The notes under the pieces: model-generated | What the model was told of the DNA's origin: nothing | Databases searched by the model: none | The model's input: the letters and a program-made list of their open reading frames with translations, nothing else | DNA from: an uncultured Acidimicrobiia bacterium | GTDB taxonomy: Bacteria; Actinomycetota; Acidimicrobiia; Spongiisociales; ZC4RG35 | Reading direction: 5' to 3' | Length of the DNA: 64,000 nucleotides | Assembly: GCA_963840175.1 (NCBI GenBank) | Contig: CAWIXU010000004.1 | Coordinates: 9,288 to 73,287, forward strand | Part shown: in pieces, positions 12,127-62,781 of the stretch | Layout of the letters: every line of letters starts with the position of its first letter | How positions within the stretch are numbered: position 1 is the first letter of the stretch | Position numbers and translations under genes: made by a program

Positions 12127-12175
12127 GGGAGATCCCCTCCGGGGGGAGAAATTCAGGTCTGGGGATGAAACGGAT

Positions 12176-16377: not shown

Positions 16378-17744
16378 CCACCGACCCCAAGCGAACCCGC
16401 TTTCTGATTATCGGCGCCGGCCCGGCCGGCACCGCCGCCGCCACCAACGCGGCCGCGCTAGGCGCAAAGGTCACTCTGGTCGAGGACCAGATCGTCGGTG
16501 GCGCGGCCCATCTTTGGGATTGCATTCCCTCCAAGACCATGATCGCCACCGCCGTGCGGATCGACTCGATGCGCAACGCCCCCCGGCTCGGGGTGACCGC
16601 CGCGCCCGGGCAGCGTCGACAGCGCCCAACTAGCCGAGCGAATCTCCATCATCTCCGGCGACATCAACCGCAGCTGGGTCGACCTCCTCAGCAGCCAGGC
16701 GGTCGAGATCATCAACGGGAAGGCCCGGCTGACCGGTCCAATCAGGCGATCGTCGAGGGAGATGACGGCGAACAGCACCGATCGAGCTTTGACGTCTGCC
16801 TGCTCTCGACCGGCTCGGCTCCCGCGTGTCCCGGCCTGGGCAGTCATCGACGGAGAACGAATCCTGACGACTCGCGACGCCTACGACCTCGAGCGAGGTG
16901 CCCGAACAGTTGATCGTGATCGGTTCGGGGGTCACCGGAGTCGAGTTCGTGCACATCTTCGAGTCGCTCGGTTCGGACGTCACCCTGGTGGTCAGCCGTC
17001 AGCAGATCCTTCCCCACCGCGATCCCGAGGTCGCAGCGGTGCTGGAAGAGAACTTCCTCGAAAGCGGGAGTGCGTCTGGTCATCGGCGCTCGCGCGATCG
17101 GGATTGATCGAACCGAAGACGGAGTCAGGGTTCGCTGCGACGACGGGCGGGTGGTCGAAGGCACCCACGCCTTGCTGGCGATCGGCTCGGTCCCGAACAC
17201 CGACTGATCTCGGACTGGGCGAGCTCGGCATCAAGGAGAGCGGCGGTTTCATCCAGGTCGACGAGCATCAGCGGACCTCGGTTCCCCACATCTATGCCGC
17301 AGGAGACTGCACCGGCCAGTTGCTGCTTTCCTCGGTGGCTGCAGTGCAGGGCCGGAAGATCGCCCGTCACGCGATGGGCTTGCCGGTCACACCGATCGAC
17401 TACTCCAAGGTGAGCCAGGCGATTTTCACTGAGCCCGAGATCGCCTCGGTCGGCCTTGAGGAGGCCGAGCTGGCCGCGGGAGGTCGCAAGGTGCGCACAA
17501 CCAAAGTGCCCTTTGCCGCCAACGCTCGGGCGGTGCTGCAAGGAAATCCCCGCGGCTTCGTCAAAGTCATGTCGGATCCCGCCACCGGAGTCGTCCTGGG
17601 CGGGAGCATCGTCGGCCACCGCGCCTCGGAGCTGATCGGGATCATGGCCCTCGCGGTCAAAGCGCGGGTCACGGTCAACGTCCTCGTCGACACCCTGATG
17701 GTGCACCCCTCCTCTCGGAAGCGATCAGCGAAGCAGCGGAGTGA
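16374..17744 (+). CDS. lpdA: LpdA-like flavoprotein (NAD(P)H-quinone / pyridine-nucleotide-disulfide oxidoreductase family), frameshifted
   Basis: GTG 16374 overlaps the mutase stop (GTGA). FLIIGAGPAGTAAATNAAALGAKVTLVE..GGAAHLWDCIPSK. Second Rossmann LIVIGSGVTGVEFVHIF (ORF 16898-17107). IYAAGDCTG. The restored C-terminus MVHPSLSEAISEAAE* ends at TGA 17742-17744. Confidence 0.75.
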
Positions 17745-21909: not shown

Positions 21910-23462
21910 TAGAGCGGCATGTTCCCATGCTTTTTCTGGGGGAGGTGCTCGCGTTTGGTGCGCAGCATCTCTAGCGCCCGGATGAGCTTGCCGCGGGTCT
22001 CGCGTGGCTCGATCACCTCATCGACCAGACCGAGTTCGGCTGCCCGATAGGGATTGTTGAATTGCTCCTCATAGTCGTGGATCAGCTCGGTTCGCTTTTC
22101 CTGGGCGATCGGTGGCCTCGGCGAGCTCGCGTCGGAAGATCACGTTGACCGCCCCCTGCGCACCCATCACGGCGATCTCGGCCGACGGCCAGGCAAAGAC
22201 CATGTCAGCACGAATGCCGCGGGCATTCATAACGAGGTAGGCCCCTCCGTAGGCCTTGCGCGTGATCACCGTCACCCGCGGCACGGTCGCTTCGCAGTAG
22301 GCGTAGAGGAGCTTGGCGCCGTGGCGAATGATGCCTCCGTGCTCCTGGCCGACGCCGGGAAGGAACCCGGGCACGTCGACGAAGGTGATCGAGAGGAATG
22401 TTGAACGAGTCGCAGAACCGCACGAAACGGGCCCCTTTCTCCGACGCCTCGATGTCGAGCGTCCCCGCCAGATGAGACGGCTGGTTGGCGACGATCCCGA
22501 CCGCCTGGCCATCGAGCCGTCCAAAACCGACGATGAGGTTGCGAGCCCAATGCTCGTGGACCTGAAAGAACTCGCCGTCGTCGACGACCAATTCGATCAG
22601 CGTGACCATGTCGTAGGGCTGGTTGGGCGAGTCGGGGATGATCGTGTCGAGGACATCTTCGAGCCGGTCGCGACTGTCGGTAGGGGGGAAGTAGGGCGGC
22701 ATCTCGAGGTTGTTCTGGGGGAAGAAGCTGAGCATGTAGCGCACCGCGTCGAGAGCGGTGCTTCCGTTCGGGAACACGAAGTGGGTCACGCCGGAAATGC
22801 TGGCGTGGGTGAAGGCACCACCGAGTTCTTCCATCGCTACCTCTTCGCCGGTGACGGCTTTGATGACATCGGGACCGGTGATGAACATGTGCGACGACCC
22901 GTCGACCTGGATGACGAAGTCCGTCATGGCCGGGGAGTACACGGCCCCGCCCGCGCACGGCCCCATGATCACCGAGATCTGCGGGATCACCCCCGAAGCG
23001 CGCACGTTGCGCTCGAAGATGCGGCCGTACCCGTCGAGGGAAGCAGACCCCCTCCTGAATGCGGGCGCCGCCGGAGTCCTTGAGACCGATGATCGGCGCT
23101 CCAACCTCCATCGCCAGATCCATCAGCTTGCAGATCTTGTCGGCCACCGCCCGGCCGAGTGATCCGCCGAAAACCGTGAAGTCCTCCGCGTAGACAAAGA
23201 CGGTCCGTCCGTCGATCGTGCCGTAGCCGGTGACCACCGCGTCCCCCGGGGGGCGCTTTTGCTCGATGCCGAACCCCGATGGACTGGTGACGGACAAACA
23301 TGTCCATCTCCTGAAAGCTGCCCTTGTCGAGCAGGTGGTCGATCCGCTCTCGAGCGGTGAGCTTGCCCTGCTCGTGCTGGCGGTCGACCGCTCGCCGGCT
23401 CCCGGCGTGATGGGCCTCATCTCGAGTTTGCGTAGTTGCTCGATGCGGGCTTCGGTGCCCAC
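21910..23462 (-). CDS. pccB: Acyl-CoA carboxylase beta (carboxyltransferase) subunit, frameshifted
   Basis: [141 protein letters not shown] at 21910-21912 abuts the accA GTG. Confidence 0.85.
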
Positions 23463-23475
23463 CAGCCTCCTCCGT

Positions 23476-24192
23476 ATGCTCTCCAGGGCCGGGATGTCTA
23501 CACCCTATTCGTCCCACGTTTACGAGGAAGTCACCTCGACCCAGGACGTTGCCCGTTCGCTCGGGATCGACAGGTCCGATCCTGGTGATTGCCGCCCGCC
23601 AGACCGAGGGTCGCGGACGGTCGGGCGCGAGCTGGGAAACGGCTCCGCGAGCCCTGGCCGCGAGCCTCCACTTCGCGCCGCGGAGCCTCGGGTGGCCCGC
23701 TGACCGTTGGACGCTGATTCCGCTGGCGACCGGCATCGCCGTCGCACGCTCTTTGCAGCTCAAATCTGAAGTGGCCCAACGATCTCCTGGTCGCGCCGGA
23801 AGAGAAGGTCGGAGGCATCCTGGTCGAGGCGACCGGTCAGACGATGACGATCGGCGTCGGGGTCAATCTCTGGTGGCCGGACCCTCCAGCCGAACGGGCT
23901 GCGACTATGGACCGACGATCCCGGTGCCTGAGGCTCTCACCGCGCCTCGGCGAGACCGTTGGCGAGGCGGTCTGGGAAGAGCTCGGTAACGGCGCCGAGG
24001 CTGGAGCTACGACGACTACTGCCGGGCCTGCTTGACACTCGGCAGCGAAATCACTTGGGGGCGAAAACCGAACGCGGCAACCGATCGCTTCGCGATCGAC
24101 CGCACGGATGGGTCACTCGTAGTCGAGGAATCCGCGTGCGCCGGCGCAAATCCGCAACTGCCGGCGAGTGTGACGCCTCAACCCGTCCGTTA
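23476..24192 (+). CDS. birA: Biotin--[acetyl-CoA-carboxylase] ligase, frameshifted; 3' end uncertain
   Basis: [50 protein letters not shown] (after a frame change) followed by [14 protein letters not shown]. Divergent from pccB-accA. Confidence 0.7.
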
Positions 24193-25054: not shown

Positions 25055-26377
25055 ATGACCACTGATCCCGATTCCAGTCCCCGTTTCAACGCGTCCACCC
25101 GCTCCCAACGGCCGCTGGTGGAAGCGCCTGGTGATCGGACTTTCTGGTCCTCGCCAACCTGGCTGTTGGCCTGGTTCTCTTCGCCCTCCACTCGAGCCAG
25201 GCCGCATTTGTCGCCAACGCCACCCAGAACACGGACGTCACTCCCGAACTGACGTTCGGCCCACCGCCAAGTCAGAGCCGCTCACGTTTTTGGTGATCGG
25301 CTCCGACACCCGTGAGGGCCTCGACAGCCTGCAGAACTTCGGCGAGTCGGAGGGGGCGCGCGGCGACGTGATCATGCTGATCAAGCTCTACCCCGATGGC
25401 GGCCGCGCCCAGATCCTCTCGCTTCCCCGGGACCTCCTGGTCGACATTCCCGGCCAGGGCACCGATCGAATCAATGCCGCATACGCCTTCGGTGGCGCTC
25501 CGCTGATGGTCCGCACCGTCGGGCAAGCGACCGGTCTCCCCGATCCACCACTACGTCGAGATCGATTTCGTCGGCTTCCAGTCGCTGGTCGACGAGATCG
25601 GAGGCGTCTACATCGACTTTCCCTACGCGGCCCGTGACGCCAACAGCGGATTGTCCGTCGAAGCGGCCGGCAGCTGCTCGACGGCTCCCAGGCTCTCGCC
25701 TATCGCCCGGTCGCGCCACTACGAGGAATTGCAGGACGACACCTGGGTCAGGTCGACGCCGACGACATCGGCCGCACCCGGCGCCAGCAGAGCCTGATCC
25801 TGGCGATCCTCTCGGAGCGTCAAGACTCCTTCGACCCTGACCGAAGCAGGATCGATCGTGGCGTCTTTGCCCAGCACCTGACTGTCGACTCGGCATTCGC
25901 CCGATCGTCGCTGGTCGAGTTGGCCTTTCGGATGCGTTGCATCTCGGCCGCGACGATGGAGACGGCAACCTTGCCCGGTTTACATCGACGACTACGAAGG
26001 CATGTCAGTCGTGAGCATGAGCCATCCTGAGGCGGACAGCATGATCGTCGCCTTTGCCGAACGGGTCAGCCGCTGCAGCGCCGATGACCGAGGCGCTTCG
26101 TTTGCAGGTCCTCAACGGCAACGGAATCAAGGGCTCTGCCGGGCGATGGGCGACCTCCTCGAGGAACAGGGTTTCGAGGTTGCTTCGGTCGGCGATGCCG
26201 AGCGGAACGACTTCGAGACCACGACCGTCATCGTTCGTCCCGGAGGCCTTCGGCCGGCTCAAGCGCTCGTCGACGCCCTTGGGTTCGGCGAGGTTTCGAC
26301 TGGCAGTCTTGACCGACGGCATCGACGCCGTGGTCATCGTCGGATTGGATGCTGACAGGACGGCCCAGACCGGTTAG
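25055..26377 (+). CDS. LytR-CpsA-Psr (LCP) family glycopolymer transferase with LytR_C domain, frameshifted
   Basis: TM LVIGLLVLANLAVGLVLFAL. LCP core LTFLVIGSDTREG..RGDVIMLIKL..ILSLPRDLLVDIPGQGTDRINAAYAFGG..HHYVEIDFVGFQSLVDEIGGV. C-terminal LRLQVLNGNGIKGSAG..VASVGDAERNDFETTTVIVRPG. Confidence 0.75.
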
Positions 26378-26416
26378 CTTTTCCAAACGGGGCGGTATCG
26401 CAGGGGAGTCAATCGG

Positions 26417-27681
26417 ATGAAAATTTCTGTTATTGGGGCCGGTTACGTCGGTCTTGTGACCGCCGCCGGACTGGCCCGCCTCGGTCATGAAGTGGCTCTG
26501 GGAGAAGCCGATGCCCGATCGTGTGCGTCGTCTCGAGAACGGCGAGGTCCCGATATTCGAGAGTGGGCTTGACGAGCTGATCCACTGGGCCCGCGCGTCC
26601 CGCCGTCTCACCTTCCACGCATCCAATCGATGCAGTCAAAGGCGCCGATTTGGTCTTCCTGTGCCTTCCGACCCCGGCCGGCGAGGACGGCCGCGCCGAT
26701 CTGACGTTCGTCGAGGCGTCGTCGACGAACTGGCGCACTCGTCGAACCCGACACGGTCTTCGTCGTGAAGTCGACGGTCCCGCCGGGGACAGCCAGGTCG
26801 CTTCAGAAACGATCTCCAATCCTCGGAAGTGAGGCAGCGGTCGTCTCTCATCCGGAGTTTCTACGGGAAGGAAGTGCCGTCCGACTTCCTGGATCCGGAC
26901 CGGATCGTGATTGGAGCCGTCGATCCCACATGGCCAAGTCGGTCACCTCGCTCTACGACAGTCTCGACACCGAGGTCGTCACCACCGACCCGACGTCGGC
27001 GGAGATGATCAAATACGCCTCCAACTCCTACCTCGCCACGCGGCTGACGTTTGCCAACACGCTCGCCAATCTTTGCGAGGCGGTCGGGGCGGACATTCTC
27101 GACGTCCTCGAACGGCGTCGGTCTCGATCATCGGATCGGGCCCCACTTCCTCAAGCCCGGCCCTGGCTACGGAGGCTCGTGCTTCCCGAAGGACACGCTC
27201 GCGCTCATCGGCGTCGCCGAGGACGCCGGCTATGACTTCAAGCTCCTCAAGGCGGTAATCGACGCCGACGAGGAACAGCGTCGGCGGGTCGCCAACAAAG
27301 TCAAGGCTGCCGCCGGTGGGGTCTGCGGGGACGTCGGATCGCGATGTGGGGTGTTGCTTTCAAGGCCGGCACCGACGACGTCCGAGAATCACCCGCCACG
27401 CGGATTGCCGCTCCTGATCGAAGGAGGGGCCGAGGTCATGTCCTACGACCCTGAGGCTCACGCTCCGAACATTCGCCATGCCGACTCTGCGCTCGAGGCG
27501 GTCGACGGGGCCGATGTTCTGTTGATCGCCACGGAGTGGCCCGAGTTCGCCAAGGTCGATTTCGACGAGGTGGCAGCGCGGATGCGCGGCCACCGGATCG
27601 TCGATGCCCGCAATCTGCTCGACCCCGGCAGTGCGGGCCGCCGGTCTCGACTACTCGGGCCTGGGACGGCCCAACGCCTAG
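26417..27681 (+). CDS. ugd: UDP-glucose 6-dehydrogenase, frameshifted
   Basis: MKISVIGAGYVGLVTAAGLARLGHEV. GLDHRIGPHFLKPGPGYGGSCFPKDT (catalytic Cys). C-terminal IVDARNLLDP. Confidence 0.85.
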
Positions 27682-27730
27682 CGAACACATATCGGCGCTT
27701 GCCGGTCGCACCAGATCGGTAGCCCGGCCA

Positions 27731-28372
27731 TCACCCCGGGGTAGGAAACGCCCTTATCAACGCGGCCGGGGTGCCAGCAGCCTTGCCGATGGCGAGTTCG
27801 GCGGCCGCGGCCAGCTCGTCGGCGATCGCTATCTCGGTGACCTCGAGCACGCGGCCGTTCATGTCGGGCGTGCCACGAAGGTCGAGGATCGGCAGCATTC
27901 CTGAGACTCCAATCGCCACGTCGACCAGGCCCATGCGCCAGGCCCGACCGAAGGTGTCGGTGACGATGACGGCGATCTCAATCCCAAATTCCCGTTCGAC
28001 GCGGATGCGGATGCGGTGCGCGGACCGGTCGGGATCGGCCGGCAGCAACACCACCTGATCATCGAGCACGTTGGAACGATCGACGCCGGCATTCGCACAG
28101 ACGAATCCGTGCCGGGTCACAGTGATCACCATGGGCGCCCCGTCGACGAAGGATGGACACCGCTTCCCGTTCGACGACGTCCCGATAGTCCTCTTCGGTG
28201 GGGGCGTCGGCCACGGCTCCTTCGGCTTTGGAGACGACCTTTTGCGTTACGACCAGGACGTCGCCGTCGGCTGGACCGAGGGGTCGCAGAGCTTCGATCA
28301 GCAAGCCGGCGCAGGTCATCGCCGGGTCGAACCTCGCCGATGCCGGTCAGCGGGTGAGATCGTGATGATCAT
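27731..28372 (-). CDS. cofE: Coenzyme F420-0:L-glutamate ligase, frameshifted
   Basis: MIITISPLTGIGEVRPGDDL.. LVVTQKVVSKAEG, TRHGFVCANAGVDRSNV, IAVIVTDTFGRAWRMGLVDVAIG, EIAIADELAAAAEL. Confidence 0.8.
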
Positions 28373-29290
28373 CAAGCTTGGCGATCTCGAGGACCCGTGG
28401 GCCAACTTGGTGGAGGCGGCGACGTCATCCATTCGGGTGTTCGCCGTGTGGATCCGCGGCCGTTTGTCGGTGTTCATCCTCGCTGTCGCTTTCGTCGATG
28501 ACGAGGTCGGTGAGGAGTCCCGAGTAGGACGGAGATCGACGCCGGCAGTATCCGCACCGTGACCCATCGACACCAAGCACTCGGTGGGCCGGTCCTTTGA
28601 GCGCGTGCCTCCGATCAGGGGCTCACGCCGATCACCTGCTCATGGCGGCAATCGTGTCGGCCACACCGGGCACGGCCAGGATCGGCCAGATCGATAGGAC
28701 CGGGTTCGAGGGGCCGATGACGACTACGTCGCTCTGCCGGCCAAGGCCTCCATGACCCCGGGCGCCGGCCGGCAGAAACCCGCTCCGCGGAAGCGCACGT
28801 CGCTCACTTCGTCGGCGTGGCGACGGAAGTACGAAATACTCCTGGAAGGAGATCCAGCCTTCACCGGCGAATCCGGACTTCGGTCCGCAGCGGGTCGTCG
28901 GTCACGGGCAGGATGGTGGCCGCGATCCCAAAGGCCGAGGCCAGCGCGGTCGTCACCCAGGTCAGCGACCACCCCGCAAGAAGACGATCCGTGCGAAACA
29001 GGTTGGTGGCAAGGTCGCTGTCTCCGATCCGGAATGTCGTGTCGATCGGCAGAGCGATCGAGGGCCTTCATCGCCGCGAAGGGATCATCGGCCAGGCCCC
29101 AACCGTGCGGCCCCTCGCGCCCCGCCATGGTGTAGATGATCGTGTCGATGTCGGGCGAGACCGCCAAGCCGTAGATGCGGTCGTCGTCGCCGACGTTGGC
29201 GATCACGGTCAATTCGTGGTCGGGCAGAGCCGCAAATCCACGGGCGAGCTTCGCCCCGCCCACTCCTCCTGAAAGCATTGTCACCCGCAC
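28347..29290 (-). CDS. cofD: 2-phospho-L-lactate transferase (F420 biosynthesis), frameshifted
   Basis: VRVTMLSGGVGGAKLARGF, TVIANVGDDDRIYGLAVSPDIDTIIYTMAG, VVIGPSNPVLSIWPILAVPG, VIGVSPLIGG. The end overlaps the cofE start. Confidence 0.8.
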
Positions 29291-29440
29291 AGCGTGCCTC
29301 CCGACCTCGCTGAGAAGCTTGGCAGTCTCGAGAGAGATTGCAGTCGAAGTTAGGCTGCTCCACAATGATCCGGTCCATGAGCAGTCCGCCGCTTTCGTCG
29401 GCCGCTCCTTCCTCTGGCACATCGCAGGCTGTCGCCCGCG

Positions 29441-32039
29441 GTGGCCGTCGCGATCCTGGCCGCTGACGGCATCGATCCCCAGGGAACCCTGCAGGCCCTT
29501 CGCTCGCAAGTTTATGCGCCAACCCAGACTCTGGTCGTGGGCGGTGCCCACTGGTCGGAAAGGGTCGTGCGAGACAGCTCAGACGTGCTCGCGGCACTGG
29601 CACCTGACGTCTCCTTCGTGTGGTGGGTGCACGGCGATACGCGTCCGCGGCCGGACGCTCTGGGCGGGTTGGTCCGCGAGCTCGACCGCACGGAGGCCGC
29701 TGTCGCGGGGTCGAAGATTCTCATCGACGGCGGCAGCGATCGCCTGATTAGTCGGTCGGTGGGGCAACTGACGTCTACGGCGACGTCTACACCGGGCTCG
29801 ATCCCGACGAGCTCGACCTCGAGCAGTACGACGTGGTCCGTGAGGTCTCCTACGTCTCGGCTGTCTCGTTGTTGGTGCGACGCGATCTGTCTGCGCGGCC
29901 TCGGTGGATTCGACCCTGCCCTCGCTCCGCAAGCGTCGAGCATCGACTTTTGTCAGCGGGTGCGTCTCGCAGGAGGAAGAGTCGTCGTGGTTCCGTCCTC
30001 TGAGGTCTTCCACCAGTCTCCTTGCGCGGCCGAGGCTCCCGGGATGGAAGGAGCAAGGCGGTCGCAACAAGGCGATGCTGGTTGCCTATTCGCCGCTGAC
30101 CCTCGCCTGGGTGGTTCCGATCGGGCGCGCTTGTCGGCTTGCTCGATGGGCTGTCGCAACTCGTTCTCGGCAGGTTCCGACCATCTGCTGGCGACGATCG
30201 CCTCGTGGTTTTGGACCCTCGGCCAGGTGCCGTCGGTCATCGCGGCCCGGGCGCGCATGCGCCGGATCAGGGCGGTGGGAGATGAGGAGCTCTTTCGATT
30301 TCAGGTCAGCGGTTCGTCACGTCTGCGGCGCACTTTCTCCGAACTCGGTGATCGCTTCAACACGGCGATTGACGAGGAGGAGAGCGGGTCCTTGGCCGAA
30401 CGAGCTACGAGTGCTTGGCGGCGACCCATCGGCGGGTCTCTCGGCATTGTCTCCGGCCTTGGCGTCCTGGTTGCGTACTCGTTCGATCTGGTTCAGCGGT
30501 CCGCCTGAGGTGGGCTTCGCGCTGCCACCGTCGGGTTTGAGTGGGTTGGTCGCCTCCTACGGCGGCGGACCCAATCCGGCGGGTTTCGGGTCCGATTTGG
30601 TGGTCCCGCCGGTCGTCGGCCTCGGTTCGATCTGCCTATCCTCTTGCTCGGCCGCCGACCGAATCTGGCCTCCGCCCTTTTGCTTGCTGGCCGCGATCGC
30701 CCTCGCCCTCCTGGGCATGGCGCGACTGGCCCGACGGATGGGGGCAGGGTCGCTCGCGGGCGTTCGTCGCCGGCTGGGTCTACGTGGCCGGGGCGACGAC
30801 GGCCGCGGTCGATGCGACCGCCAACTGGCCCGCGCTGATGGCTGTCGGACCCTTGCCCTGGGCGATCGAGGCGATCGTTGCTCCTCCTGTCCAGGGTCGT
30901 CGACGGGTCGGCCGGTTGGCCGCGGCCGGGTTCGCCGCGGGCTTTGTGGCGATCGCTTTTCCGCCGCTTCTCTGGTCGTGGTCGCGCGAGCGGTTTGCTT
31001 TGGGCCGTCGTCGCCCGCCGTTTCGGGGCCGCTGGCCTCGGTCTCGCGGCGACTGCTCTCGGCTGCTCTCTGATCCTCCCCTATGTGTTGGGGGCCGATC
31101 TCAACGACGTGCTCTTTGCCGGCAAGCTCCGCCCCGATATCGCCAACGAGTGGCTCTGGCTGGCGGGGATCGGGCTCGGCTTCGCGGTCGCCGCCCTCTC
31201 TTCGCCGCGGACCCGGCTGCCTCGATCTGGTGGGCGGGAATCATGGCCGCGGCGGGTTATCTCGTTTCGCAGAGTCCCGACGTTGCCCCCGGGGTGGTGG
31301 TCGTGGCGTTGATGGCTGCGCGATTGGGGCCGGCGTGCTTGCGGCCAGTCTCATCGAAGTCGAGGCCGCGACCGAAGCTGCTCGGCGGTCTCGCGGCCGC
31401 GCTTCTCGCTATTGCCAGCCGTCCTCACCATCGCCCAGGGACGCTTTGGACTTCCCGGCCGATCGTTGGACCGACCGGCTCGACTTCGTGACCACGTTGA
31501 GCGCCGACGAGGCCCAGGCCGCGCCCTGCTCATCGGGCCCCGTGGATCTTTGCCTGGCCGTGCTCGGTCTCTGTTCGGGTTCGACTATCGCACGATCGAC
31601 GGGGGCCAGACAACACTGACCCAGGCGTATCTGTCGAGTCCCGGCCCCCTCGATGACGAGCTTGCTGGGTGATCAACGATCATCTACTGGCCGGAGTCGA
31701 TCTCCGACCGGGTGCCGCGCCTGGCCCGGCTCGGCATCGAGTGGCTTGTGCTCGTCCCCGGCTCCGAGTTCCCGACCGAGATCCTCAATCGGCAGATCGA
31801 TCTCGTGGCCCGACCGGTCGACACCGATCTCGCGGTTTATCAGAACCTCTCCTACCGGCCGGCGGACCTCGCTCCGGCGTGGGACGGGGTCGGAGCTGGC
31901 GCGCACGCGCCGGCTGGGGTCGGGGGCCTTGCTCGTCGTGCTCGTCGCGGTCGCCTACTGGGGACGCAACCGGGGCCGGCAAGTTCCGATCGTGGAGCCG
32001 GTCCCGAGCCAGTGGATCGGGCCGGTGAGCGTCGGATGA
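29441..32039 (+). CDS. Large GT2 glycosyltransferase fused to a ~600-codon polytopic membrane region, heavily frameshifted
   Basis: GT2 part: VAILAADG.., WWVHGDTRPRPDAL, AVSLLVRRDL..GGFDPALAPQASSIDFCQRVRLAGGRVVVVPSSEVFH. Then hydrophobic fragments across ORFs 29904-31073, 30541-31491, 30878-31312, 31083-31619, 31412-31672, 31653-32039. Confidence 0.55.
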
Positions 32040-33326
32040 GCGAGCGCGTAGCCCGCTGGGGCATCGTGTTGGTCGTCGTTCGCCGCACTGCTTTTCGGCT
32101 TCTTGCTTCCCGGCCGGCCCGGCGCCGGTCGTCGATCCAGCTGACGATCCCCGGTGACCCGCCCCTATGTGACCTGTGCCGCGGCTCTGGCCGGGTCGGG
32201 ATTCGAATCGACGGTGGGTGTGGTGACCGACTCATCCGTCAGCGGGACGCTCAGCGGGGTGGGGGTCGACAGCCCGGGCGACGACTTCGAACTGAGGGCG
32301 ACGAAAGCTTTCGCTTCGAGGTTGGGAGCGTGGCCGAGCTCGGCGTCACCCCGATCCTGGTTGAACGATTCACCGGTGGCGACCTGGGCGCGGGCGTTCT
32401 AGGGCGAGCAGGTGCGCAGGCGTCGACCGCCGGGTGCCAGCCGGCCAGTTCCGCTCCGGTCGCTTTGCTGGGCATGGCCACAAACGAGGGCGAGCAATCG
32501 ACGGTCGTGCTCGCCAATCCCTTCGCGGTCGAGGCCAGCGGCCGGTTGGTGGGGTCGTCGGAGTTTGGACTGGACATGGTCACCGAGCTCGAGTCCGTGC
32601 GGGTCCCGGCGCATTCGACGCTCACCTTGCCGCTCGGCCAGCTGATGGCCGGGCGTCAGCAGCTCGGCTTCACGCTCTACACCGACGGCGGAGCGATCGT
32701 GGCTGGCATGACCCGCTCGGGCGCAGACATCGCGACCTCGGAGGCGATCGCCGGCGCCCAGCAGTGGTTCGTTCCGCTTCCCGCCTTCGGTGTCCACGGA
32801 CAACTGATCGTTCGCAACCTCGCTTCGGTCGAGGCGACCTATCGCATCGACGCATTGAATCACGAAGGCGTGATCGAGGGCGTTGACAATGGCGCCCTTC
32901 CCCCCGACACCGAGTTCTGGCTTCAACTTCGAGGACCTTGGGGACAAGCGGCGGCTATCTCGTCACTGCCGACGAGCCGGTCGCGGTCGCGCTCGCTTAC
33001 GCGGGCGAGAACACCCGCATCGTTTCGACTGCATCTCCGACTGCCGACCGTCGCCTGGTTGGTACCCGTGTCGAGCAACGCCCCCGATTCCGAGACCGCG
33101 GTCTGGATCCTCAATCCCGAGGAGGCTGCGGTGACGGCGGAGGTGGCCGTCTTCGGCGGTGCCACCACCGAGTTCGAGGTTTCGACCGGGAACGACCTTT
33201 GGCCAGATCGTCCGCTTCAATGGCCGCGGCGGAATGATCACCGCCACCGGCGAGGTTGCGGTCTTCCACGGAGTCCTGAGCGACGGCGGCGCCGCGTCGA
33301 TGACTCTGGCTCATCCGCTCGAATGA
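32036..33326 (+). CDS. Membrane-anchored/secreted protein of unknown function (DUF5719-like by position only), frameshifted
   Basis: ATG 32036 overlaps the preceding stop (ATGA). MSERVARWGIVLVVV anchor. Beta-rich body STVVLANPFAVEASGRLVGSS..VRVPAHSTLTLPLGQL..LIVRNLASVEATYRIDAL..AVWILNPEEAAVTAEVAVFGG. Family name is inferred from synteny, not from a motif. Confidence 0.3.
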
Positions 33327-33680
33327 GCGAGTTCACCCTTCGGCTGCTGGTCCTGGTGGCGCTCGCCGCGCTGGTTGCGGTGGCGGTGTTCTGGCAACGC
33401 CGGATGAAACGAGCGTCGCCCGTACTCCGGTTTTGCGTCCCGATCTCGGTGCCGGGATCCACTTCTTCGCCTCCGCTACCTGCCGACCGTGTCTCGACGC
33501 CCGCAAGGTGTTGACTCAGGCGTACGGCGAGCGGTTCAGTCGAGATCTCCTACGAAGACGATCCGACCCGTTTCGGCGAGCTCGGAATCTCGTCGGTCCC
33601 GACGGTCATGGTCCTTGACGGCGACGGCAACGGCCTCCTCTGGGAGGGCGTTCCCCGCGCCCTCCGATCTCCCCCGCTGA
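33323..33680 (+). CDS. TM-anchored thioredoxin-fold protein (CxxC = CRPC), frameshifted
   Basis: ATG 33323 overlaps the preceding stop (ATGA). MSEFTLRLLVLVALAALVAVAVFW anchor. IHFFASATCRPCLDARKVL, then ISYEDDPTRFGELGISSVPTVMVLDGDGNGLLWEG. Confidence 0.5.
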
Positions 33681-33731
33681 CCGTACGGTCGCTGGTGGAA
33701 AGGCCACAACGAATCCTCCAAGCGTTCTACC

Positions 33732-33959
33732 GTGCTCACGGTGTTCCCCAGCTGTCTCCGCTGTCCGTCACCGGCCTCGGCCGTGATGATGTACTCGTAT
33801 CCCGACCAGCACATGTGGGTCGAGGACCTCGCTGTCACCGACGTTCCTTCCTACGCCCTGTGCAGCGACCATTCCGCCCGTCTCAGCCCGCCGCGCGGTT
33901 GGACCTTGACCGATCGCCGGACCGTCGCCCGGCTCTTCGCCCCGCTCGAAGTGGCCTAG
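33732..33959 (+). CDS. DUF3499-family protein
   Basis: SCLRCPSPASAVMMYSYPDQHMWVEDLA..SYALCSDHSARLSPPRGWTLTDRR has the Cys/His pattern and RGW tail typical of DUF3499 (the Rv3258c-type position next to manB). Confidence 0.55.
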   Translation: MLTVFPSCLRCPSPASAVMMYSYPDQHMWVEDLAVTDVPSYALCSDHSARLSPPRGWTLTDRRTVARLFAPLEVA

Positions 33960-33965
33960 CCGGCC

Positions 33966-34236
33966 TTGGCGCTCGACCGCGACCTGCTTGACGCGGTACG
34001 CGACCTCGATGCACACGATCTGCGCCGGTTGCTGATCCTCACCCAGGCCCAGCTCGAGACGCGACGGGGTCTTCAACTCGGCCAAACGGCCCAAGATCAG
34101 AATGCGGAGCCAAATGGTCAAATGCGGCAAGGCCAGTTGCGCCGCCTGCCCCCATGGCCCCTATTGGTACGCCGTTTGGTGGGAAGACGGCGTCCGCCGA
34201 ACCCGTTACGTCGGGCGCCTGCTCCAAGACGAATAG
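33966..34236 (+). CDS. Small protein: helical N-terminus + CGKxxCxxCxxGPYWY zinc-binding-like C-terminus, one frame change
   Basis: MALDRDLLDAVRDLDAHDLRRLLILTQAQLETRRG.. (ORF 33966-). Then, in the frame of ATG 34102, MRSQMVKCGKASCAACPHGPYWYAVWWEDGVRRTRYVGRLLQDE*. Confidence 0.4.
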
Positions 34237-34322
34237 AACGGCCGCCCAAGCGCACCAATCCAGGCCGGTCGCGGCAGCGAAAACCAGGTAGAAATCCGTC
34301 GTCCGATAGAATCCCCGCCTTC

Positions 34323-34535
34323 ATGGACTGCCCCCAATGTGGCGTCGTCGACGTCATCGAGATCAAGCATCGCCTGCCCGACGGCAGCGAGGTCCAGTTC
34401 TTCTCATGCCACAAGTGCGAGGAGAAGTGGTGGGACCGCTCCGGCGACCAGATCAATCTGACCCAGGTGCTCGAGCTGGTTCGCAAGGTCCCGGTCCTGA
34501 CGCACCTGATGCCGGGGAATCTGCGATGCAGCTAG
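34323..34535 (+). CDS. Small zinc-ribbon protein (CxxC...CxxC)
   Basis: MDCPQCGVVDVIEIKHRLPDGSEVQFFSCHKCEEKWWDRSGDQINLTQVLELV; ATG 34323. Confidence 0.5.
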   Translation: MDCPQCGVVDVIEIKHRLPDGSEVQFFSCHKCEEKWWDRSGDQINLTQVLELVRKVPVLTHLMPGNLRCS

Positions 34536-36923
34536 CCGGACCACCCTCCGGTACAACGCGCCGTTTCATCCCCTTGATCGTGGGCGTGGGTTGCGCTCTT
34601 GGCGATCCTCGCGGTGCTCAACCCCCGGCTCCTCCTCGACGGCCACCACGCCGTCGGGAGGCGACATGGCTGCCCATGTGGCAGTCCCCGCCTATCTCCG
34701 CGATGTTCTGCTCCCGCAGGGCCGAATCCTCGGCTGGTCGCAGGATTGGTTCGCCGGCTATCCGGTCTTCTACTTCTACTTCCCGCTGCCTTCGCTCGTC
34801 ATCGTCCTGCTCGACGTCGTCCTGCCCTACGGCGTCGCCTTCAAAGTCGCCACGATCTCGGGCCTCCTCGCCACCCCGCCAGCCGACTTACTACCTGGCT
34901 CGCAGCCTGCGATTCGGAAGAGCCGGTGTCGACGGTGGCCGCGGCGGGCGGTGCCGCCTTCATCTTCATGGAGAGCTTCACGATCTACGGAGCCAATGTT
35001 CTCTCGACCATGGCGGGCGAGTTCTCGTTCTCGTGGTCGTTGGCCCTCTCGTCTCTTGTATCTCGCTTTTCTGATCCGCTCGATCCGCGACGACCCGAGG
35101 TACGTCCCCTGGCCGGACTCTTTCTGGCCGGCGCGGTCCTCTGCCACATCATCACGATCATCGCTTTCATGGCGGCGAGCCTCGACGGTGCTCCTCTGGA
35201 AAGGGGCCTGCGGCAGGCGCTCAAGGTGTGGGCCATCGGATTCGCCATCAGCCGGGTTCTGGGTGGTCCCGCTGCTTGCCCGTCTCGGGTTCAGCTCCGA
35301 CATGGCGTGGATACCGCTTCGCAGCTGGGATCAGCTGTTCCCGCTCGAGATCTGGCTCCTGCTGCCCGCGCGATCGGCGGAGCCATCTGGGCACTGCGGC
35401 GCACCAACCGCAGGCTTGCCGTTGATGGCGCTGACCCTGCTGCCCGATCATCTACTACCCGCTGCCAATCGTCCTCCCGGACCTGCTCCCCGGGATCTTC
35501 AACGCCCGCTGGAAGCTGTGGAACGGCCGCCTGCTCCCGTTCTGGTATTTCGGGGTCACGTTCTTTGCCGCGATCGGCATCGGCGGCGTTTGCGATGTGG
35601 CTGACGAAGCGCTTCCCCGACCGGGTCTCCGGATTGCTGCCGCGGATCCTGTTCCTCGCAGCCGGGACGGTGGCGGTGATCCTGCTCGCCCGGGAAGAGA
35701 ATGTTCCCAATCCGGTGGTTTGGGCGTGTGGCGATCTGATGCTCGGGGCCTTAGTTGCCTCGATGCTCTGGATGCGAGCCGGTCGATACCCGGTCGTTCC
35801 TGGCCCTGAGCGCAGCCGGGATCCTGGCCTTTGGCGCGCTGGCCGGGATCACGATCATGAACGGATGGGCTCGCTGGAACTACACCGGCTACGAAGGCAA
35901 AGCCAAATGGCCCGAGTACGAGGCGCTGATGACGACAGCGGCCACGACTGGAACCGGGGCGGATTCATTGGGAATACGACGAAGACGATGAACGACTTCG
36001 GCTCGCCGATGGCCCTGATGCTGTTTCCGTACTGGACTCAGGAGGCTTTCGGGTCGATGGAAGGGCTGTTCTTCGAATCGTCGCTCTCGACTCCATTCCA
36101 CTTCCTCAACCAGGCGGAGATGAGCAAGGACCCATCGAGCCCCGATTCCGGGCCTCGACTATCACCGGTTCGACTTCGAACGCGGGCATCCCCCATCTGC
36201 AGATCTTCGGGGTCGACTACTACGTGACCTTCACCCCCGAAGCCACAGGATCTGGCCGACAGCTGGCCGGAACTGACCGAGATCGCCAGCTCACCGGACC
36301 GTTCACCTTCTACGAAGTGGCCGACTCCGCCCTGGTCGAGGCTGCGACTTCCAACCCGCCGTTTACGAAGGCCCCCACAACAGCCTGCCCGGCCCGACTG
36401 GGAGGAGTCGTCGGGATCGGTCCCGGACGAACAGGCGCAACCTTCGAGGAGGTCTCACTCGAGTGGTACGGATGGATGGATCTCCTCGATCGATGGATCA
36501 CCACCGACGGCCCCGCGGATTGGCCGCGGATCACGATCGTCGACCAACTCGGAGCCGGTCTGCTCCGCTGCGGATAACCGAAGCGAAGATCACCGACGTC
36601 GTGATGACCGACGATCGGATCTCGTTCCGCACCGACGCGATCGGGGTGCCCCACCTGGTGAAGGTCTCCTACTTTCCCAACTGGCAGGCCACGGGCGCCG
36701 AAGGGCCCTTCCACGCCGGGCCTTCGCTCATGATCGTGGTTCCGACCAGTCGACGGTGACCCTGCAGTTTGGCAACACGGCCGTCGAGAACCTCGGCTGG
36801 ATTCTGACCATCGCCGGACTGGCCGCCGGCCGGGCTCTGCTGCTGGTCAGGAGCCGGGCGAGCCGCAAGCCGCTCGGACGCGGGCTACGCCGTAGCCGAC
36901 GTCCGGCGGTATCCGCCCGCTGA
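34526..36923 (+). CDS. ~800-aa polytopic membrane protein, putative GT-C-type glycosyltransferase (PTPS-related/YfhO-like), frameshifted
   Basis: GGDMAAHVAVPAYLRDVLLPQGRILGWSQDWFAGYPVFYFYFPLPSLVIVLLDV. Many TM fragments (ORFs 34591-35604, 34599-36227). Extracytoplasmic C-terminus: SLSTPFHFLNQAEMS.., VKVSYFPNWQATGAEGPFHAGPSLMIVVPT, final TM LGWILTIAGLAAG. 3' end uncertain. Confidence 0.45.
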
Positions 36924-37634
36924 GCGTCCACCACCAGCAGTCGGAGCGTGTCGCGGGCCATCTGCCAGAGCATGCCGCCCCGCACCGGCGCCTGCGGAAG
37001 CGCCCGGTCCCAACTCCACCGGCAGTCTCTTTGATTGAAACCCGCCCGCTGGGCCCGAACCAGCATCTCGAGGTCGTAGGCATATCCATCGATCCGCATC
37101 TGGGGAAGACCTGATCGAGGATCGATCGCCGGAAGATCTTGAGCCCGGTCTGGGTCTCGGGCACGGGCAGCCGAAACAGACCCACCGTCGCCAGCGAAAA
37201 CAGCCGGCTCAGCACTCGCCGGATGAACGGGTAGCGGCCCGTCGCCCATCGAGTCGCGCTTGGCACCGACCAGCACGTCGGCTCGCCCATGTCTTCGAGC
37301 AAGGCCGGCAGCTGCTCGGGCGGAAGGTCGAGATCGGCGTCGAGAAAGACGATCAGGTTCGCCGCGTGGCCCGGGCGCCCGTGAACAGCGCCTGGCCTTT
37401 GCCCCGGTTGACCTCGTGACGGAGGACCCGAACTCCCTCGGCATGTCGCGGTGGCCCGCAGCGCTTCGAGCAGCGTGTTGTCGCGTGCTGCCGTCGTCGA
37501 CCACGACGATCTCCACGGGCCCCATCGCCGACAGGACGGACGCGCACCCGCTCGATGTTGGCGGCGATCACCTGCGAACCCAGGTTGGCAGGCGGCAGGA
37601 CGACGGCGACATCGGACGAGAGGACTGTAGCCAT
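36847..37634 (-). CDS. GT2 glycosyltransferase of the polyprenyl-phosphate-sugar synthase type, frameshifted
   Basis: MATVLSSDVAVVLPPANLG.., VEIVVVDDGSTDNT, VRVLRHEVNRGKGQAL, NLIVFLDADLDLPPEQL, PETQTGLKIFRRSILD, DGYAYDLEMLVRAQRAGF. 3' end uncertain. Confidence 0.65.
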
Positions 37635-37728: not shown

Positions 37729-39069
37729 ATGAGCGGAGTTTTCAAGGCCTACGACATCCGAGGGCGAACCGACATCGGTGAGCTCACCCCGGAGCTGGCC
37801 ACGGCGGTCGGAGCCGCTTTTGCCGACCTCACCGGCGCCGAACCAGATCGCGGTCGGGCGGGATTGTCGAGCGTCGTCACCGGCGATGTCGGAGGCACTG
37901 ATCGATGGGATCACCGGCCAGGGGAGCCTCGGTCCTCGCTCTCGGCGAGGTCGCGACCGACTTCGTCTACTACGTCTCCGGCAGCCGGTCGGTCCCCGGG
38001 GTGATGATCACGGCGTCGCACAACCCGGCCGAATACAACGGGATCAAGCTTTGCCGGGAAGGAGCGGCCCCGGTGGGCGAGGACACCGGCCTCAAGGAGA
38101 TCGAGAGGATGGTGGCCGAACCGTCCATGGCCGAGCGACCGTGCGGGGGCATCGGTCGAGACCCTCGATGCCCGCGAGGGCTACGTCAACCATCTGCTCG
38201 CGATCGTCGACGAAGCGGCAATGTCGCGCTGCGAGGTGGCGGTCGACGGCGGGCAACGGCATGGCCGGGGCGGTGGTCGAGGCAGTCTTCGAGCGCATTC
38301 CTCCCACCATCATCGGGCTCTATCTCGAACCCGATGGGACCTTTCCCAATCATCCCGCCGATCCGCTGCAGCCCGAGAACCTGGTCGATGTCATCGCGCT
38401 GGTCAAGCGCGGAGAATGCCGATCTCGGGGTTGCCTTCGACGGCGACGCCGATCGGGCGGTCTTCATCGACGATCAGGGCGAGCCGCTCTCGGGAAGCAC
38501 CACCACGGCCCTGATCGCCCGGTGGTTCCTGGCCCGCCAGCCCGGGGCCACGATCGTCCACAACCTCATCACCTCACGGGCCGTGCCGGAGATCGTCGAG
38601 CTCGCTCGGCGGCAAACCGGTCCGAACCCGGGTCGGTCACTCCTTCATCAAGCAGGTGATGGCCGAGACCGGAGCCGTCTTCGGTGGCGAGCACTCCGGT
38701 CACTACTACTTCGCCGACAACTTCCGGGCCGACTCCGGGATGCTGGCGATGCTGGTGCTCCTCCAGGTCATCTCCGAGTCGGGGAGGAAGCTGTCGGAGA
38801 TCCGGAGCGAAGTCGAGCCGTACTGCCGCCTCGGGCGAGATCAACATTCAGCGTGGCCGATCAGAAGGCTGCCATGGATCGGGTCGAGGAGGAGTTCGCG
38901 GACGCCGAGCTCGACGATCTCGACGGGCTGACGGTCTCGTGGCCCGACCGCTGGTTCAATCTGCGGGCTTCGAACACCGAACCGTTGCTGCGCCTCAACG
39001 TCGAAGGCCCGGACCGACACAGTCGGTCGAAGAGCTGAGCGCGAAGGTCCAAGCCGTGATCGGAGGTGA
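37729..39069 (+). CDS. manB: Phosphomannomutase/phosphoglucomutase, frameshifted
   Basis: MSGVFKAYDIRG, GVMITASHNPAEYNGIKL (phosphoserine loop), GVAFDGDADR (Mg site), GGEHSGHYYF, WFNLRASNTEPLLRLNVEG. At least 5 frame changes; stop not cleanly resolved. Confidence 0.85.
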
Positions 39070-39073
39070 GCCG

Positions 39074-39283
39074 ATGCCGCTCATTGACCCCGTGCTTGCT
39101 GCGATCATGGTCTGCCCGTTCGATCACGGCGACCTCTTCGAGGACGAGGCCACGTCCCGGCTCGTCTGCGCGGTCTGCGGCCGTGCCTACCCGGTTGACG
39201 ACGGGATACCGATCATGCTCATCGAGGAGGCCGAGCTCCCGGGGGACGGCCCAGCAGAACGGGACGGTCCCGATGCCGGCTGA
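39074..39283 (+). CDS. Trm112-family zinc-ribbon protein
   Basis: MPLIDPVLAAIMVCPFDHGDLFEDEATSRLVCAVCGRAYPVDDGIPIMLIEEA, preceded by GGAGG. Confidence 0.8.
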   Translation: MPLIDPVLAAIMVCPFDHGDLFEDEATSRLVCAVCGRAYPVDDGIPIMLIEEAELPGDGPAERDGPDAG

Positions 39284-49393: not shown

Positions 49394-50111
49394 ATGATTC
49401 GGCTGCGTGACGTCACCAAGGTTTATGAGGGCGGAGTTGTGGCCGTCCGTGACATCAATCTCGACATCCAAAAAGGGCGCTTTCGTCTTCCTGGTCGGCC
49501 CCTCGGGGTCGGGCAAGTCGACGCTGATCCGGCTGTTGCTCCGTCAGGACACCGTGACCCGGGGCACGATCTGGGTCGCAGGCAAAGACATCACCCAGCT
49601 GCCCGCCTGGAAGGTGCCATTCCTCCGTCGTTCGGTCGGCACCGTCTTCCAGGACTTCAAGCTCCTGCCCAATAAGACGGTGAGTGAGAACGTCGCTTTC
49701 GCTCTCGAAGTCCTCGGCAAGCCCCGGGCAGTGATCGGTCCACAGGTCCAGCAAGTGCTCGAACTGGTCGGGCTCAAGGACAAGGCCGATCGCTATCCCC
49801 GCCAGCTGTCCGGTGGCGAACAGCAGCGAGTCTCGATTGCTCGTGCTTTCGTCAACCGGCCACCGATCCTCCTCTGCGATGAGCCCACGGGCAACCTCGA
49901 CCCGGCGACGTCGGTGGGGATCATGCGTTTGCTCGATCGGATCAACCGCTCGGGGACGACGGTCGCGATGGCGACTCATGACCACGCCATCGTCGATGCC
50001 ATGCAACGACGAGTGGTGCAGCTGGAGAACGGACGGATCATCCGCGACGAGCAGGCCGGGCGTTATGAAGAGCAGGTCGCCGAAGTCAGCGACGGGAGTG
50101 TCGCCCCGTGA
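49394..50111 (+). CDS. ftsE: Cell-division ABC ATPase FtsE, one frame change at 49470-49477
   Basis: [14 protein letters not shown].. Walker [10 protein letters not shown], signature LSGGEQQRV, Walker [13 protein letters not shown]. Confidence 0.9.
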
Positions 50112-51050
50112 ATCGTTTCGGCTTCCTGGCGCGCGAGGCTTTCATCAACCTGCGTCGCAACCTTTTGGTGGTGATGGGAGCGGTGCTCGCGGTGTTCATC
50201 TCGCTGGCCCTTGCCTTCGGAGCCCTGGTCATCAACCAGATGCTGCGGATCAACACGCTCGCCTGGCAAGACGGAGTGCACATCATCGCCTTCCTTCATG
50301 ACGAAGGTCTGCCCGGAATCCCCACGGGCGCCCATGACGCACTTGTGGCCGAGGTTGCGAGTTGGGAGGAAGTCGCTCAACGTCAGCTACATCGACAAGG
50401 CCGAGGCTTACGTCGAGTTCCAGCAGATTTTCGCCGACCGTCCCGAGTATTTGGAGAATGTCGATCCGACTGTGTTGCCGGCGTCGGTTCGGATCGAGTT
50501 AACGGATCTCGAGCTCTACCGAGATGTTCAGTTCCGGCTGGCGAGCGAAAGCCAATTGATCTTTCGGGTAGCGACCTTCGGCGAGCAGATCGAACAACTC
50601 TCTTCACTGTCGACCGTACTCAATCTGCTCGGACTGGGTCTCGCCCTTGTGCTCGGCGTCTCGGCAGTGATCCTTATCGCCAACACCATCCGCATGGCCA
50701 TCTACGCCCGACGCGACGAGGTGGCGATCATGAAATTGGTTGGCGCCTCCAACTGGTTTGTCCGCGTCCCCTTCATCCTCGAAGGGATGATCGAAGGACT
50801 GATCGGGGCGGGTCTGGCGGTCGCCGCGGTGTGGGTGGCTTTCCGCAATCTTCGGTCCCTCGGTGACTCGATCGAGATCGTCTCGTTTGCGGTGCCCGAC
50901 CGGTTCTTCCTCACCTGGTCGATTGTGATTCTTCTCTTCGGAGCGGCAGCAGGAGTGCTGGGCAGCGTGCTGGGGCTCAGCCGATACCTGAAAGACGACG
51001 AGGGGAGCCGGCCGGTTGCGGTCGGTGCGCGGGTCTTAGAGCCGCTGTGA
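50108..51050 (+). CDS. ftsX: Cell-division permease FtsX, one frame change near 50370
   Basis: [29 protein letters not shown]. Periplasmic domain [16 protein letters not shown]-terminal [41 protein letters not shown]. Confidence 0.85.
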
Positions 51051-53670: not shown

Positions 53671-53673
53671 TCG

Positions 53674-54023: not shown

Positions 54024-54085
54024 CATGGGCTGATCGCAATTCTACGGGTATTCAGAGAATCCGTGTTCGCCTATCTTCTGCGGAA

Positions 54086-62679: not shown

Positions 62680-62755
62680 TCCTTTCGCGGTTCGCTGCAA
62701 ACCGCGGTCCCACGCCACCTGTTCCTCCTCCCACCAGGCGTTCGAGTTGTGGAGC

Positions 62756-62781
62756 GAGCCCACCACCGAAGTGGTGGGCTC
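62756..62781 (-). promoter_or_regulatory. Intercistronic stem-loop with UUCG tetraloop between the binding-protein and permease genes
   Basis: Transcript sense is GAGCCCACCAC-UUCG-GUGGUGGGCUC, a perfect 11-bp stem. It lies 12 nt after the binding-protein stop and has no U-tract. Confidence 0.6.

Follow-up and report, generated by a model that had tools for sequence, protein, structure and literature searches.

Gene content and reading frames of the locus

In this study, we analysed a 64,000-nt stretch of DNA (the window) from an uncultured Acidimicrobiia bacterium (GenBank assembly GCA_963840175.1, contig CAWIXU010000004.1, positions 9,288 to 73,287), in which a chain of genes between cofD and manB had been proposed, from the sequence alone, to form an envelope glycosylation module. 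Homologue-guided correction of the reading frames recovered this chain at or very near the positions given in the original prediction. Our results suggest that the region probably comprises two adjacent units for extracytoplasmic glycosylation of the cell envelope. The first, on the plus strand, consists of gene A (29377 to 32039; about 880 aa after correction), coding for a glycosyltransferase family 2 (GT2) domain of the glycosyltransferase-A (GT-A) fold fused to a polytopic region with a predicted glycosyltransferase-C (GT-C) fold; gene B (32036 to 33326), coding for an N-terminally anchored, exported DUF5719 protein; and gene C (33323 to 33680), coding for a predicted thioredoxin-fold protein of about 118 aa with a single transmembrane (TM) helix and a CxxC (CRPC) motif. 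The second consists of gene G (34526 to 36923, plus strand), coding for a membrane protein of about 790 aa with a predicted GT-C fold; a small GT2 gene (36847 to 37634, minus strand), which converges on G so that their 3′ ends overlap; and manB (37729 to 39084, plus strand), a phosphomannomutase/phosphoglucomutase (PMM) gene divergent from the small GT2 gene. Gene A starts at an ATG 64 nt upstream of the GTG at 29441 from which it had earlier been read. The start of B overlaps the stop of A and the start of C overlaps the stop of B, each within an ATGA; both overlaps, on which a prediction of coupling had been based, are present in the window and in its relative L002.

The G+C content of the window is about 66%, and none of the large genes of the region is an intact open reading frame (ORF) in the window as given. 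In a plot of G+C at third codon positions, the best frame switches every few hundred bases across the glycosylation genes. The frames were corrected by a frameshift-aware protein-to-DNA alignment (a dynamic programme) of the proteins of an intact relative, L002 (NCBI GCA_013812505.1, an Acidimicrobiia metagenome-assembled genome [MAG]), against the window, and L002 served as the reference for the corrected coordinates. A codon-usage Viterbi reconstruction recovered too few frameshifts and was set aside in favour of this alignment. For Pfam searches on window DNA, stop-to-stop fragments were used as queries.

Between positions 25000 and 42000, all the genes tested, those for housekeeping functions among them, have about one insertion or deletion (indel) per 100–130 nt, mostly a single extra base. 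Relative to L002, 23 corrections were needed in A, 8 in B, 3 in C, 25 in G and 12 each in the small GT2 and PMM genes; among the housekeeping genes, the numbers were 10 for UDP-glucose dehydrogenase (UGDH), 4 for cofE, 11 for cofD, 11 for PGI and 6 for AdoHcy hydrolase (AHCY). The same programme applied to the DNA of another relative, L005, made 0 corrections for A and G, so the indels are real features of the window sequence. Since their density is similar in the housekeeping genes, they point to noise of a long-read assembly rather than to gene decay. With 3 to 25 disruptions of the frame, most of the module's genes could also be read as decaying pseudogenes, but this is extremely improbable, given that UGDH, cofD, PGI, AHCY and PMM are disrupted at equal density, that premature stops barely accumulate once the frames are corrected and both the identity to L002 (75–89%) and the invariant motifs are retained, that the alignment method invents no shifts in L005, and that the closest relatives stem from long-read metagenome assemblies. 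After correction, all genes are collinear with those of L002, with protein identities of 62–89%, and the window DNA is about 83% identical to, and collinear with, that of L001 and L005 over 16.8 kb. Overlapping ORF pairs are also found at 12153–13983, 22205–23763, 50108–52704 and 60239–63909, and the indels therefore likely affect the whole window.

Gene G codes for a predicted GT-C membrane protein

More than 2,900 homologues of corrected G, about 780 aa in length, were found, nearly all of them hypothetical proteins of Acidimicrobiia MAGs, and not one carries a precomputed Pfam domain. A profile search with G among 1.84 billion cluster representatives (clusters at 50% identity) gave 3,835 related clusters at E ≤ 1e-3, of which 1,316 remained at a cut-off of E ≤ 1e-30. 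With six intact orthologues of G as queries, neither Pfam nor NCBIfam gave a match even at E ≤ 1 (PMT, PMT_2, MIR, STT3, YfhO PF09586 and PF10131 included), and PDB sequence searches with a profile of either the full-length protein or its C-terminal domain gave 0 matches at E ≤ 10. On these grounds, G was rejected as a Pmt, YfhO or STT3 protein. Distant members of the family, in contrast to the close orthologues, do match PF10131 (PTPS_related), namely P0390 (1e-36), P0250 (7e-10) and P0382 (2e-5), and one relative is named '6-pyruvoyl-tetrahydropterin synthase-related protein' by NCBI. PF10131 is placed in the GT-C clan (CL0111), its function being unknown (PMC7801869), and our literature search on PF10131/PTPS-related membrane proteins and on Acidimicrobiia GT-C enzymes returned nothing functional. 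P0390 (1191 aa) joins PF10131 to DUF2079, which is likewise a family of predicted polytopic proteins.

An AlphaFold model of the G orthologue P0004 (pLDDT 80, pTM 0.82) has about 13 TM helices, a mixed alpha/beta domain of about 300 aa and a final TM helix. The best Foldseek match of this model was AftD (1e-7), followed by ArnT (2e-6) and then by STT3 and DPY19, and its polytopic fold is one shared with solved GT-C enzymes, which have 8–13 TM helices. The predicted GT-C fold of G is thus well supported by the model, in line with the earlier view of the protein as GT-C-like but not Pmt-like. Both the N-tail and the C-tail of G are basic, and the 308-aa domain that separates its last two TM helices is acidic (17 K/R versus 45 D/E). 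This charge distribution places the two tails on the predicted cytoplasmic side and the 308-aa domain outside.

An alignment of 42 G sequences has a mean column identity of 60% and contains the conserved motifs TPTGGDMxAHV (just past the first TM helix), FYFYFPLPS, RWKLWNGRLLP, GWxxWN[YF]xGYExK and KVSYFPNW. The GGD45M motif that directly follows the first TM helix has a conservation of 90% or more, and D58 does not vary at all; the G protein of the window retains SGGDMAAHV. The motif by which the protein had been described, GGDMAAHV..GWSQDWFAGYPVFYFYFPLP, is present in the window, and its alignment columns are invariant, or almost so, across the family. G thus conserves an acidic motif in its first extracytoplasmic loop, as expected of a GT-C enzyme, with a putative catalytic role.

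The small GT2, manB and their natural fusions with G

The small GT2 is 264 aa long in L002, and the L002 orthologue matches PF00535 at 3.2e-26. It has a DxD motif (FLDADLD) and no TM segment, and is a soluble or peripheral protein. Its best match in the PDB is the dolichol-phosphate mannose synthase (DPMS) of P. furiosus (5mlz; 7.6e-19, over residues 17–244 of 263), with ArnC next and GtrB lower in the ranking; the top NCBIfam matches are PpgS (4.9e-22), ArnC, PgfS, AglJ and Dol-P-hexose transferase. These matches support its predicted assignment to the polyprenyl-phosphate-sugar synthase type (DPMS/Ppm1/GtrB/ArnC/PpgS), which had been suggested before. The small GT2 also matches glucosyl-3-phosphoglycerate synthase (NCBIfam 1.2e-18, PDB 2.7e-11), over its N-terminal 100 or so residues only. 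The manB product is 81% identical to that of L002, which matches NCBIfam PRK09542 at 1e-172. Given that a bifunctional PGI/PMI gene, the PMM gene and a DPMS-like GT2 gene adjoin, the most likely sugar would be mannose, with glucose or an N-acetylhexosamine less likely.

The strongest functional evidence for the second unit comes from natural fusions. P0326 (1,248 aa, six cluster members, NCBI MCQ3813658.1) consists of G followed by a C-terminal PF00535 GT2 domain, and P0312 (1,358 aa) and P0382 (1,284 aa) of G followed by a complete four-domain PGM_PMM I–IV. Each type of fusion recurs in several independent assemblies, and both the G+GT2 fusion (L085:10001-13747) and the G+PMM fusion (L086:10001-14077) occupy the syntenic locus of more distant Acidimicrobiia. 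Because the fused GT2 or PMM domain sits after the last TM helix of G, both partners are predicted to lie on the side of the cytoplasm, which is where enzymes that make lipid-linked sugars or interconvert sugar phosphates have to act. These fusions link G with the small GT2 and manB in function. No other fusion between a GT-C enzyme and a sugar-phosphate mutase is known to us. L086 also has a stand-alone DUF2079 gene (15656–17149) close to its G+PMM fusion.

Genes A, B and C

Orthologues of A are 860–980 aa in length, and many of them carry PF13641/PF13632 and are named GT2-family glycosyltransferases; the closest orthologues match these two families only below threshold. PDB sequence searches with a profile of A or with its N-terminal domain gave 0 matches. 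The model of the A orthologue P0121 (pLDDT 86) comprises a GT-A domain (residues 20–235), a polytopic region (about 238–682) with a predicted GT-C fold and an alpha/beta domain (697–830) followed by the last TM helix; the alpha/beta domain is extracytoplasmic. Both the GT-A fold and the GT2 profile matches of the family agree with the earlier description of A as a GT2 fused to a polytopic region. An invariant cluster, D300-E301-E302, could be the GT-C acidic motif of A, a candidate whose side of the membrane is ambiguous. Comparison of the G and A profiles by hhalign found no relationship, indicating that the two GT-C domains are not recent paralogues. The sequence QRVRL in A was considered as a processive QxxRW motif and rejected, since from its position it is presumably the ordinary ED..R region of PF13641-type GT2s.

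The B protein is 75% identical to that of L002. It matches DUF5719 (PF18986) at 1.5e-6 (28.0 bits) for the window fragment and at 2.7e-7 (30.5 bits) for L002, both above the gathering cut-off of 26.2. Basic residues ahead of its TM helix mark this helix as an N-in signal anchor, as befits the anchored, exported protein that had been foreseen. A literature search on DUF5719 found no functional information.

The C protein is 62% identical to that of L002 and has one TM helix. Single C sequences gave no Pfam thioredoxin match, but a profile of 22 orthologues matched the PDB thioredoxins 2l6c (3.2e-7) and 1fo5 (8.7e-6). The invariant residues of the family are a serine, the CxxC (C53-x-x-C56), in which the CRPC motif first noted for C lies, and two prolines, including P92 in a VPT motif. 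The CxxC, the cis-Pro loop and the profile match together identify C as a predicted thioredoxin-fold protein. Its N-tail is short and acidic and the sequence RRxxRxRP follows the TM helix; by the positive-inside rule, the thioredoxin domain is predicted to be cytoplasmic. Thus, of the original description of C as a TM-anchored periplasmic thioredoxin, the anchor and the fold hold, while the domain is probably on the cytoplasmic side. In L085, a thioredoxin recognisable by Pfam lies on the opposite strand, beside a DUF5719-like gene, so a thioredoxin-type neighbour recurs there in a different form.

Conservation across Acidimicrobiia

In a synteny scan, the G alignment was run against a single genome for each GTDB species, and at least 568 loci were found. 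The best 80 of these, all from MAGs and nearly all labelled Acidimicrobiia, were analysed, and the counts given here refer to the loci with enough flanking sequence (67 or 56). The small GT2 gene is adjacent to G and convergent with it in 61 of 67 loci, and 64 of the 67 have a PMM gene at most 5 kb from G. Gene A is present in 55 of 56 loci, and gene B, upstream of G, in 53. Gene C was detected in 36 of 56 loci, an underestimate because it is short and divergent. The DUF3499, DUF6788 and zinc-ribbon genes that lie between C and G are each found in 55 of 56 loci. The genes are therefore co-conserved outside this genome, and neither of the two outcomes that were to refute the original prediction (corrected proteins belonging to well-characterised families of known substrate, or a lack of co-conservation beyond this genome) was observed.

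The genes A, B and C are separated from G, the small GT2 and PMM by unrelated small genes, and in L085 (6346–8768) and L086 (6636–8561) also by genes for FtsH and an Rce1-like CAAX protease, which stand between A-B and G. Hence we regard them as two neighbouring units rather than the single module of the original prediction. Of the two, the second is the better supported. The redox-dependent glycosylation step that had been read from the thioredoxin is likewise not supported.

Proposed function and alternative explanations

We propose that in the second unit, PMM and the bifunctional PGI/PMI encoded downstream would feed hexose-1-phosphate into a nucleotide sugar, from which the small GT2 would load the sugar onto polyprenyl phosphate on the cytoplasmic face of the membrane. 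The lipid-linked sugar would then be flipped across the membrane by a flippase, and G would pass the sugar to an extracytoplasmic acceptor, using the invariant Asp of GGDMxAHV in its first outside loop together with its outside domain of about 300 aa. In the first unit, A, B and C may form a translationally coupled operon, in which A would join a cytoplasmic GT-A domain dependent on a nucleoside diphosphate (NDP) sugar to an independent GT-C-fold domain, B would be its anchored extracytoplasmic partner and C a membrane-tethered thioredoxin-like protein, probably cytoplasmic. The route first suggested, from supply of a sugar-1-phosphate through synthesis of a lipid-linked donor to an outside GT-C enzyme, is largely borne out for the second unit by the folds, families, synteny and fusions. 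The data show directly the gene order, the modelled folds, the family relationships, the synteny and the fusions; the sugar, the lipid carrier, the acceptor and the roles of B and C are inferred.

Several observations weigh against this interpretation. The 17-kb block is wholly syntenic, with cofD/cofE, PGI and AHCY included; since these housekeeping genes are as syntenic as the others, adjacency alone is weak evidence, and it is the fusions that carry the functional argument. The pairing of G with the small GT2 is not universal, as L069 (CP070681.1, a 1.7-Mb MAG chromosome) has G and the DUF3499, DUF6788 and zinc-ribbon genes but lacks A, B, the small GT2 gene and PMM at distances of up to 10 kb; in L086, no small GT2 was found within 10 kb of the G+PMM fusion. 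In L001, L002, L004, L085 and L086, the genes called within ±10 kb include no GtrA (PF04138) or Wzx-like flippase, and no NDP-sugar pyrophosphorylase or nucleotidyltransferase was seen in the cluster. The small GT2 reached 78.5 bits against PpgS, for which the NCBIfam equivalog cut-off is 370, and was also far below the cut-off of every other equivalog, so its type is supported and its sugar specificity is not defined. For the GT-A domain of A, the closest proteins are GlfT2 and GalNAc-T and not DPMS, and A may therefore not make a lipid-phosphate sugar. Finally, all relatives are from uncultured organisms, and the folds are those of AlphaFold models of the orthologues P0004 (G) and P0121 (A), not of the window sequence.

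Of the alternatives, it is possible, although somewhat unlikely, that the membrane domain of A is non-catalytic and acts as the scaffold, or as the export channel, for a polymer that the GT2 domain of A synthesises, as in a synthase-dependent system, with the DUF5719 protein as the outer partner. A distinctly unlikely but more far-reaching possibility is that the locus codes for an undescribed glycopolymer or glycoprotein pathway specific to Acidimicrobiia. Here, G would be the founder of a new GT-C family that docks its synthase and mutase on its cytoplasmic tail and perhaps acts in the manner of an oligosaccharyltransferase on surface-layer (S-layer) or S-layer-homology (SLH) proteins, and A would perform both GT-A and GT-C steps with DUF5719 as an obligatory partner.

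It is very unlikely that the gene order is simply inherited, as an old and stable block of Actinomycetota without functional coupling, with the small GT2 acting in another pathway, for example as a synthase of glycosyl-phosphoglycerate or compatible solutes that uses the product of PMM. The collinearity of UGDH-cofE-cofD-...-PMM-Trm112-PGI-AHCY in nearly all loci, genes of unrelated function included, would fit such an explanation, as would the match of the small GT2 to glucosyl-3-phosphoglycerate synthase. The backbone LCP...cofD...DUF3499...PMM...PMI...AHCY also recalls what we take to be a similar arrangement in the Rv3248c–Rv3267 region of M. tuberculosis, presumably without A or G. However, the G+GT2 and G+PMM fusions in independent assemblies would not be expected from inherited order alone, the DPMS match spans the whole catalytic domain of the small GT2 whereas the glucosyl-3-phosphoglycerate synthase match does not, and the overlap between the convergent 3′ ends of G and the small GT2 gene is conserved.

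We consider it highly unlikely that G is a divergent oligosaccharyltransferase-like enzyme that, in the mode of AglB/PglB/STT3 (GT66), transfers a lipid-linked glycan en bloc onto S-layer or SLH proteins. STT3 is among the Foldseek matches of the G model, but AftD and ArnT are favoured over it, and G has the motif W-x-x-W-N-[YF]-x-G-Y-E in place of WWDYG, so that the resemblance is at the level of the fold only.

Our preferred reading, two adjacent envelope glycosylation units, describes a system of a familiar type that is built from unstudied protein families. Its unusual features are the fusion of a GT-C protein to PMM or GT2 and the pairing of a GT-A/GT-C fusion with DUF5719. Soils, sediments and waters are rich in Acidimicrobiia, of whose cell envelope, to our knowledge, almost nothing is known. 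The locus offers a testable entry to this envelope and includes a large GT-C family for which there is no Pfam or NCBIfam model. The fusion proteins point out the cytoplasmic partners of the G family, and the fusion protein A, with DUF5719 following it, would give that domain a context. The main gain is better annotation and a guide to biochemistry; no concept is overturned.

Comparison with known systems

The logic proposed for the second unit, in which a cytoplasmic GT2 charges polyprenyl phosphate with a sugar for a GT-C enzyme to use outside the membrane, is common to CsbB/YfhO, GtlA/GtlB, GtrB/GtrC, ArnC/ArnT, Ppm1/Pmt and PpgS/Rv3779. In CsbB/YfhO and GtlA/GtlB, which act in teichoic-acid glycosylation in Bacillus and Listeria, and generally in three-component systems of the GtrB/GtrC type, the gene for a cytoplasmic GT2 adjoins that for a GT-C protein, as it does here. 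YfhO in the CsbB/YfhO scheme has 13 TM helices, with a large outside loop and then the last TM helix (PMC5836110), and G shares with it both the approximate number of TM helices and the big outside domain between the last two (PMC5836110). In contrast to YfhO, G has no PF09586 match even at E ≤ 1. Other differences from the CsbB/YfhO and Gtr systems are that the small GT2 has no TM helices, that the locus has no GtrA-type flippase, that the genes converge instead of forming an operon and that the host is an actinobacterium.

Ppm1/Pmt, which acts in protein O-mannosylation, and PpgS/Rv3779, which modifies mycobacterial arabinogalactan with GalN, are actinobacterial pairs of a polyprenyl-phosphate sugar synthase and a GT-C enzyme, as we propose for the small GT2 and G. 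The small GT2 resembles Ppm1 and PpgS in that its best PDB match is DPMS, its best NCBIfam match is PpgS and its gene is linked to those for PMM and PMI. The catalytic domain of Ppm1, like the small GT2, is presumably free of TM helices. G differs from Pmt (GT39) in that its six orthologues have no PMT, PMT_2 or MIR domain at E ≤ 1, and the small GT2 differs from PpgS in scoring far under the PpgS cut-off. As far as we know, fusion of the GT-C protein to PMM or GT2 is not a feature of either pair. PF10131 is matched by members of the wider G family, but not by the six orthologues of the window type at E ≤ 1.

Gene A differs from mycobacterial GlfT2, a GT2 polymerase of the cytoplasm, and from the GT-C arabinosyltransferases AftA/AftD in that it holds both folds in one polypeptide, and its identity to these proteins is only 12–15%. 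The DUF5719 and thioredoxin-like proteins that follow A have no counterpart in the mycobacterial pathway.

Surrounding genes

Between C and G lie three small genes on the plus strand. The first (33786 to 33959) codes for a DUF3499 protein (Pfam 2.3e-9) that is 77% identical to that of L002, with 0 frameshifts, and that is probably a conserved neighbour outside the glycosylation chemistry. The second (33966 to 34233) codes for a small Cys/His protein with a weak match to DUF6788 and 86% identity to L002. The third (34323 to about 34490) codes for a 58-aa CxxC...CxxC zinc-ribbon protein with weak Pfam matches to TFIIS, Elf1 and FdhE_central. The zinc-ribbon gene is directly 5′ of G, and in L004 (9828–10004) its stop overlaps the start of G in an ATGA. 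The zinc-ribbon protein may serve G in the cytoplasm, as a small partner or a regulator. In L002 (8611–8913, minus strand) and L003, an extra gene on the opposite strand between C and DUF3499 codes for a 100-aa membrane protein matching NCBIfam PRK10457 at 9e-8; it is absent from the window and the other loci.

Upstream of A (25698–29290) are genes for a LytR-CpsA-Psr (LCP) glycopolymer ligase, UGDH and cofE/cofD, the last two being on the minus strand, and downstream of manB are those for Trm112, the bifunctional PGI/PMI and AHCY. Genes A, B and C occupy what we take to be the position of whiB2 in mycobacteria; no WhiB gene was seen at this locus in the window.

Elsewhere in the window, an ORF at 7817–9724 (plus strand) codes for a SpoIID protein with C-terminal SLH domains, a hint that the organism has an S-layer or a secondary cell-wall polymer bound by SLH domains, either of which might be an acceptor of glycosylation. 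A tmRNA gene at 53671–54024 (minus strand), with the tag AEDNFALAA, was identified by ARAGORN and by Rfam (RF00023, 157.7 bits) and is the sole RNA family found in the window.

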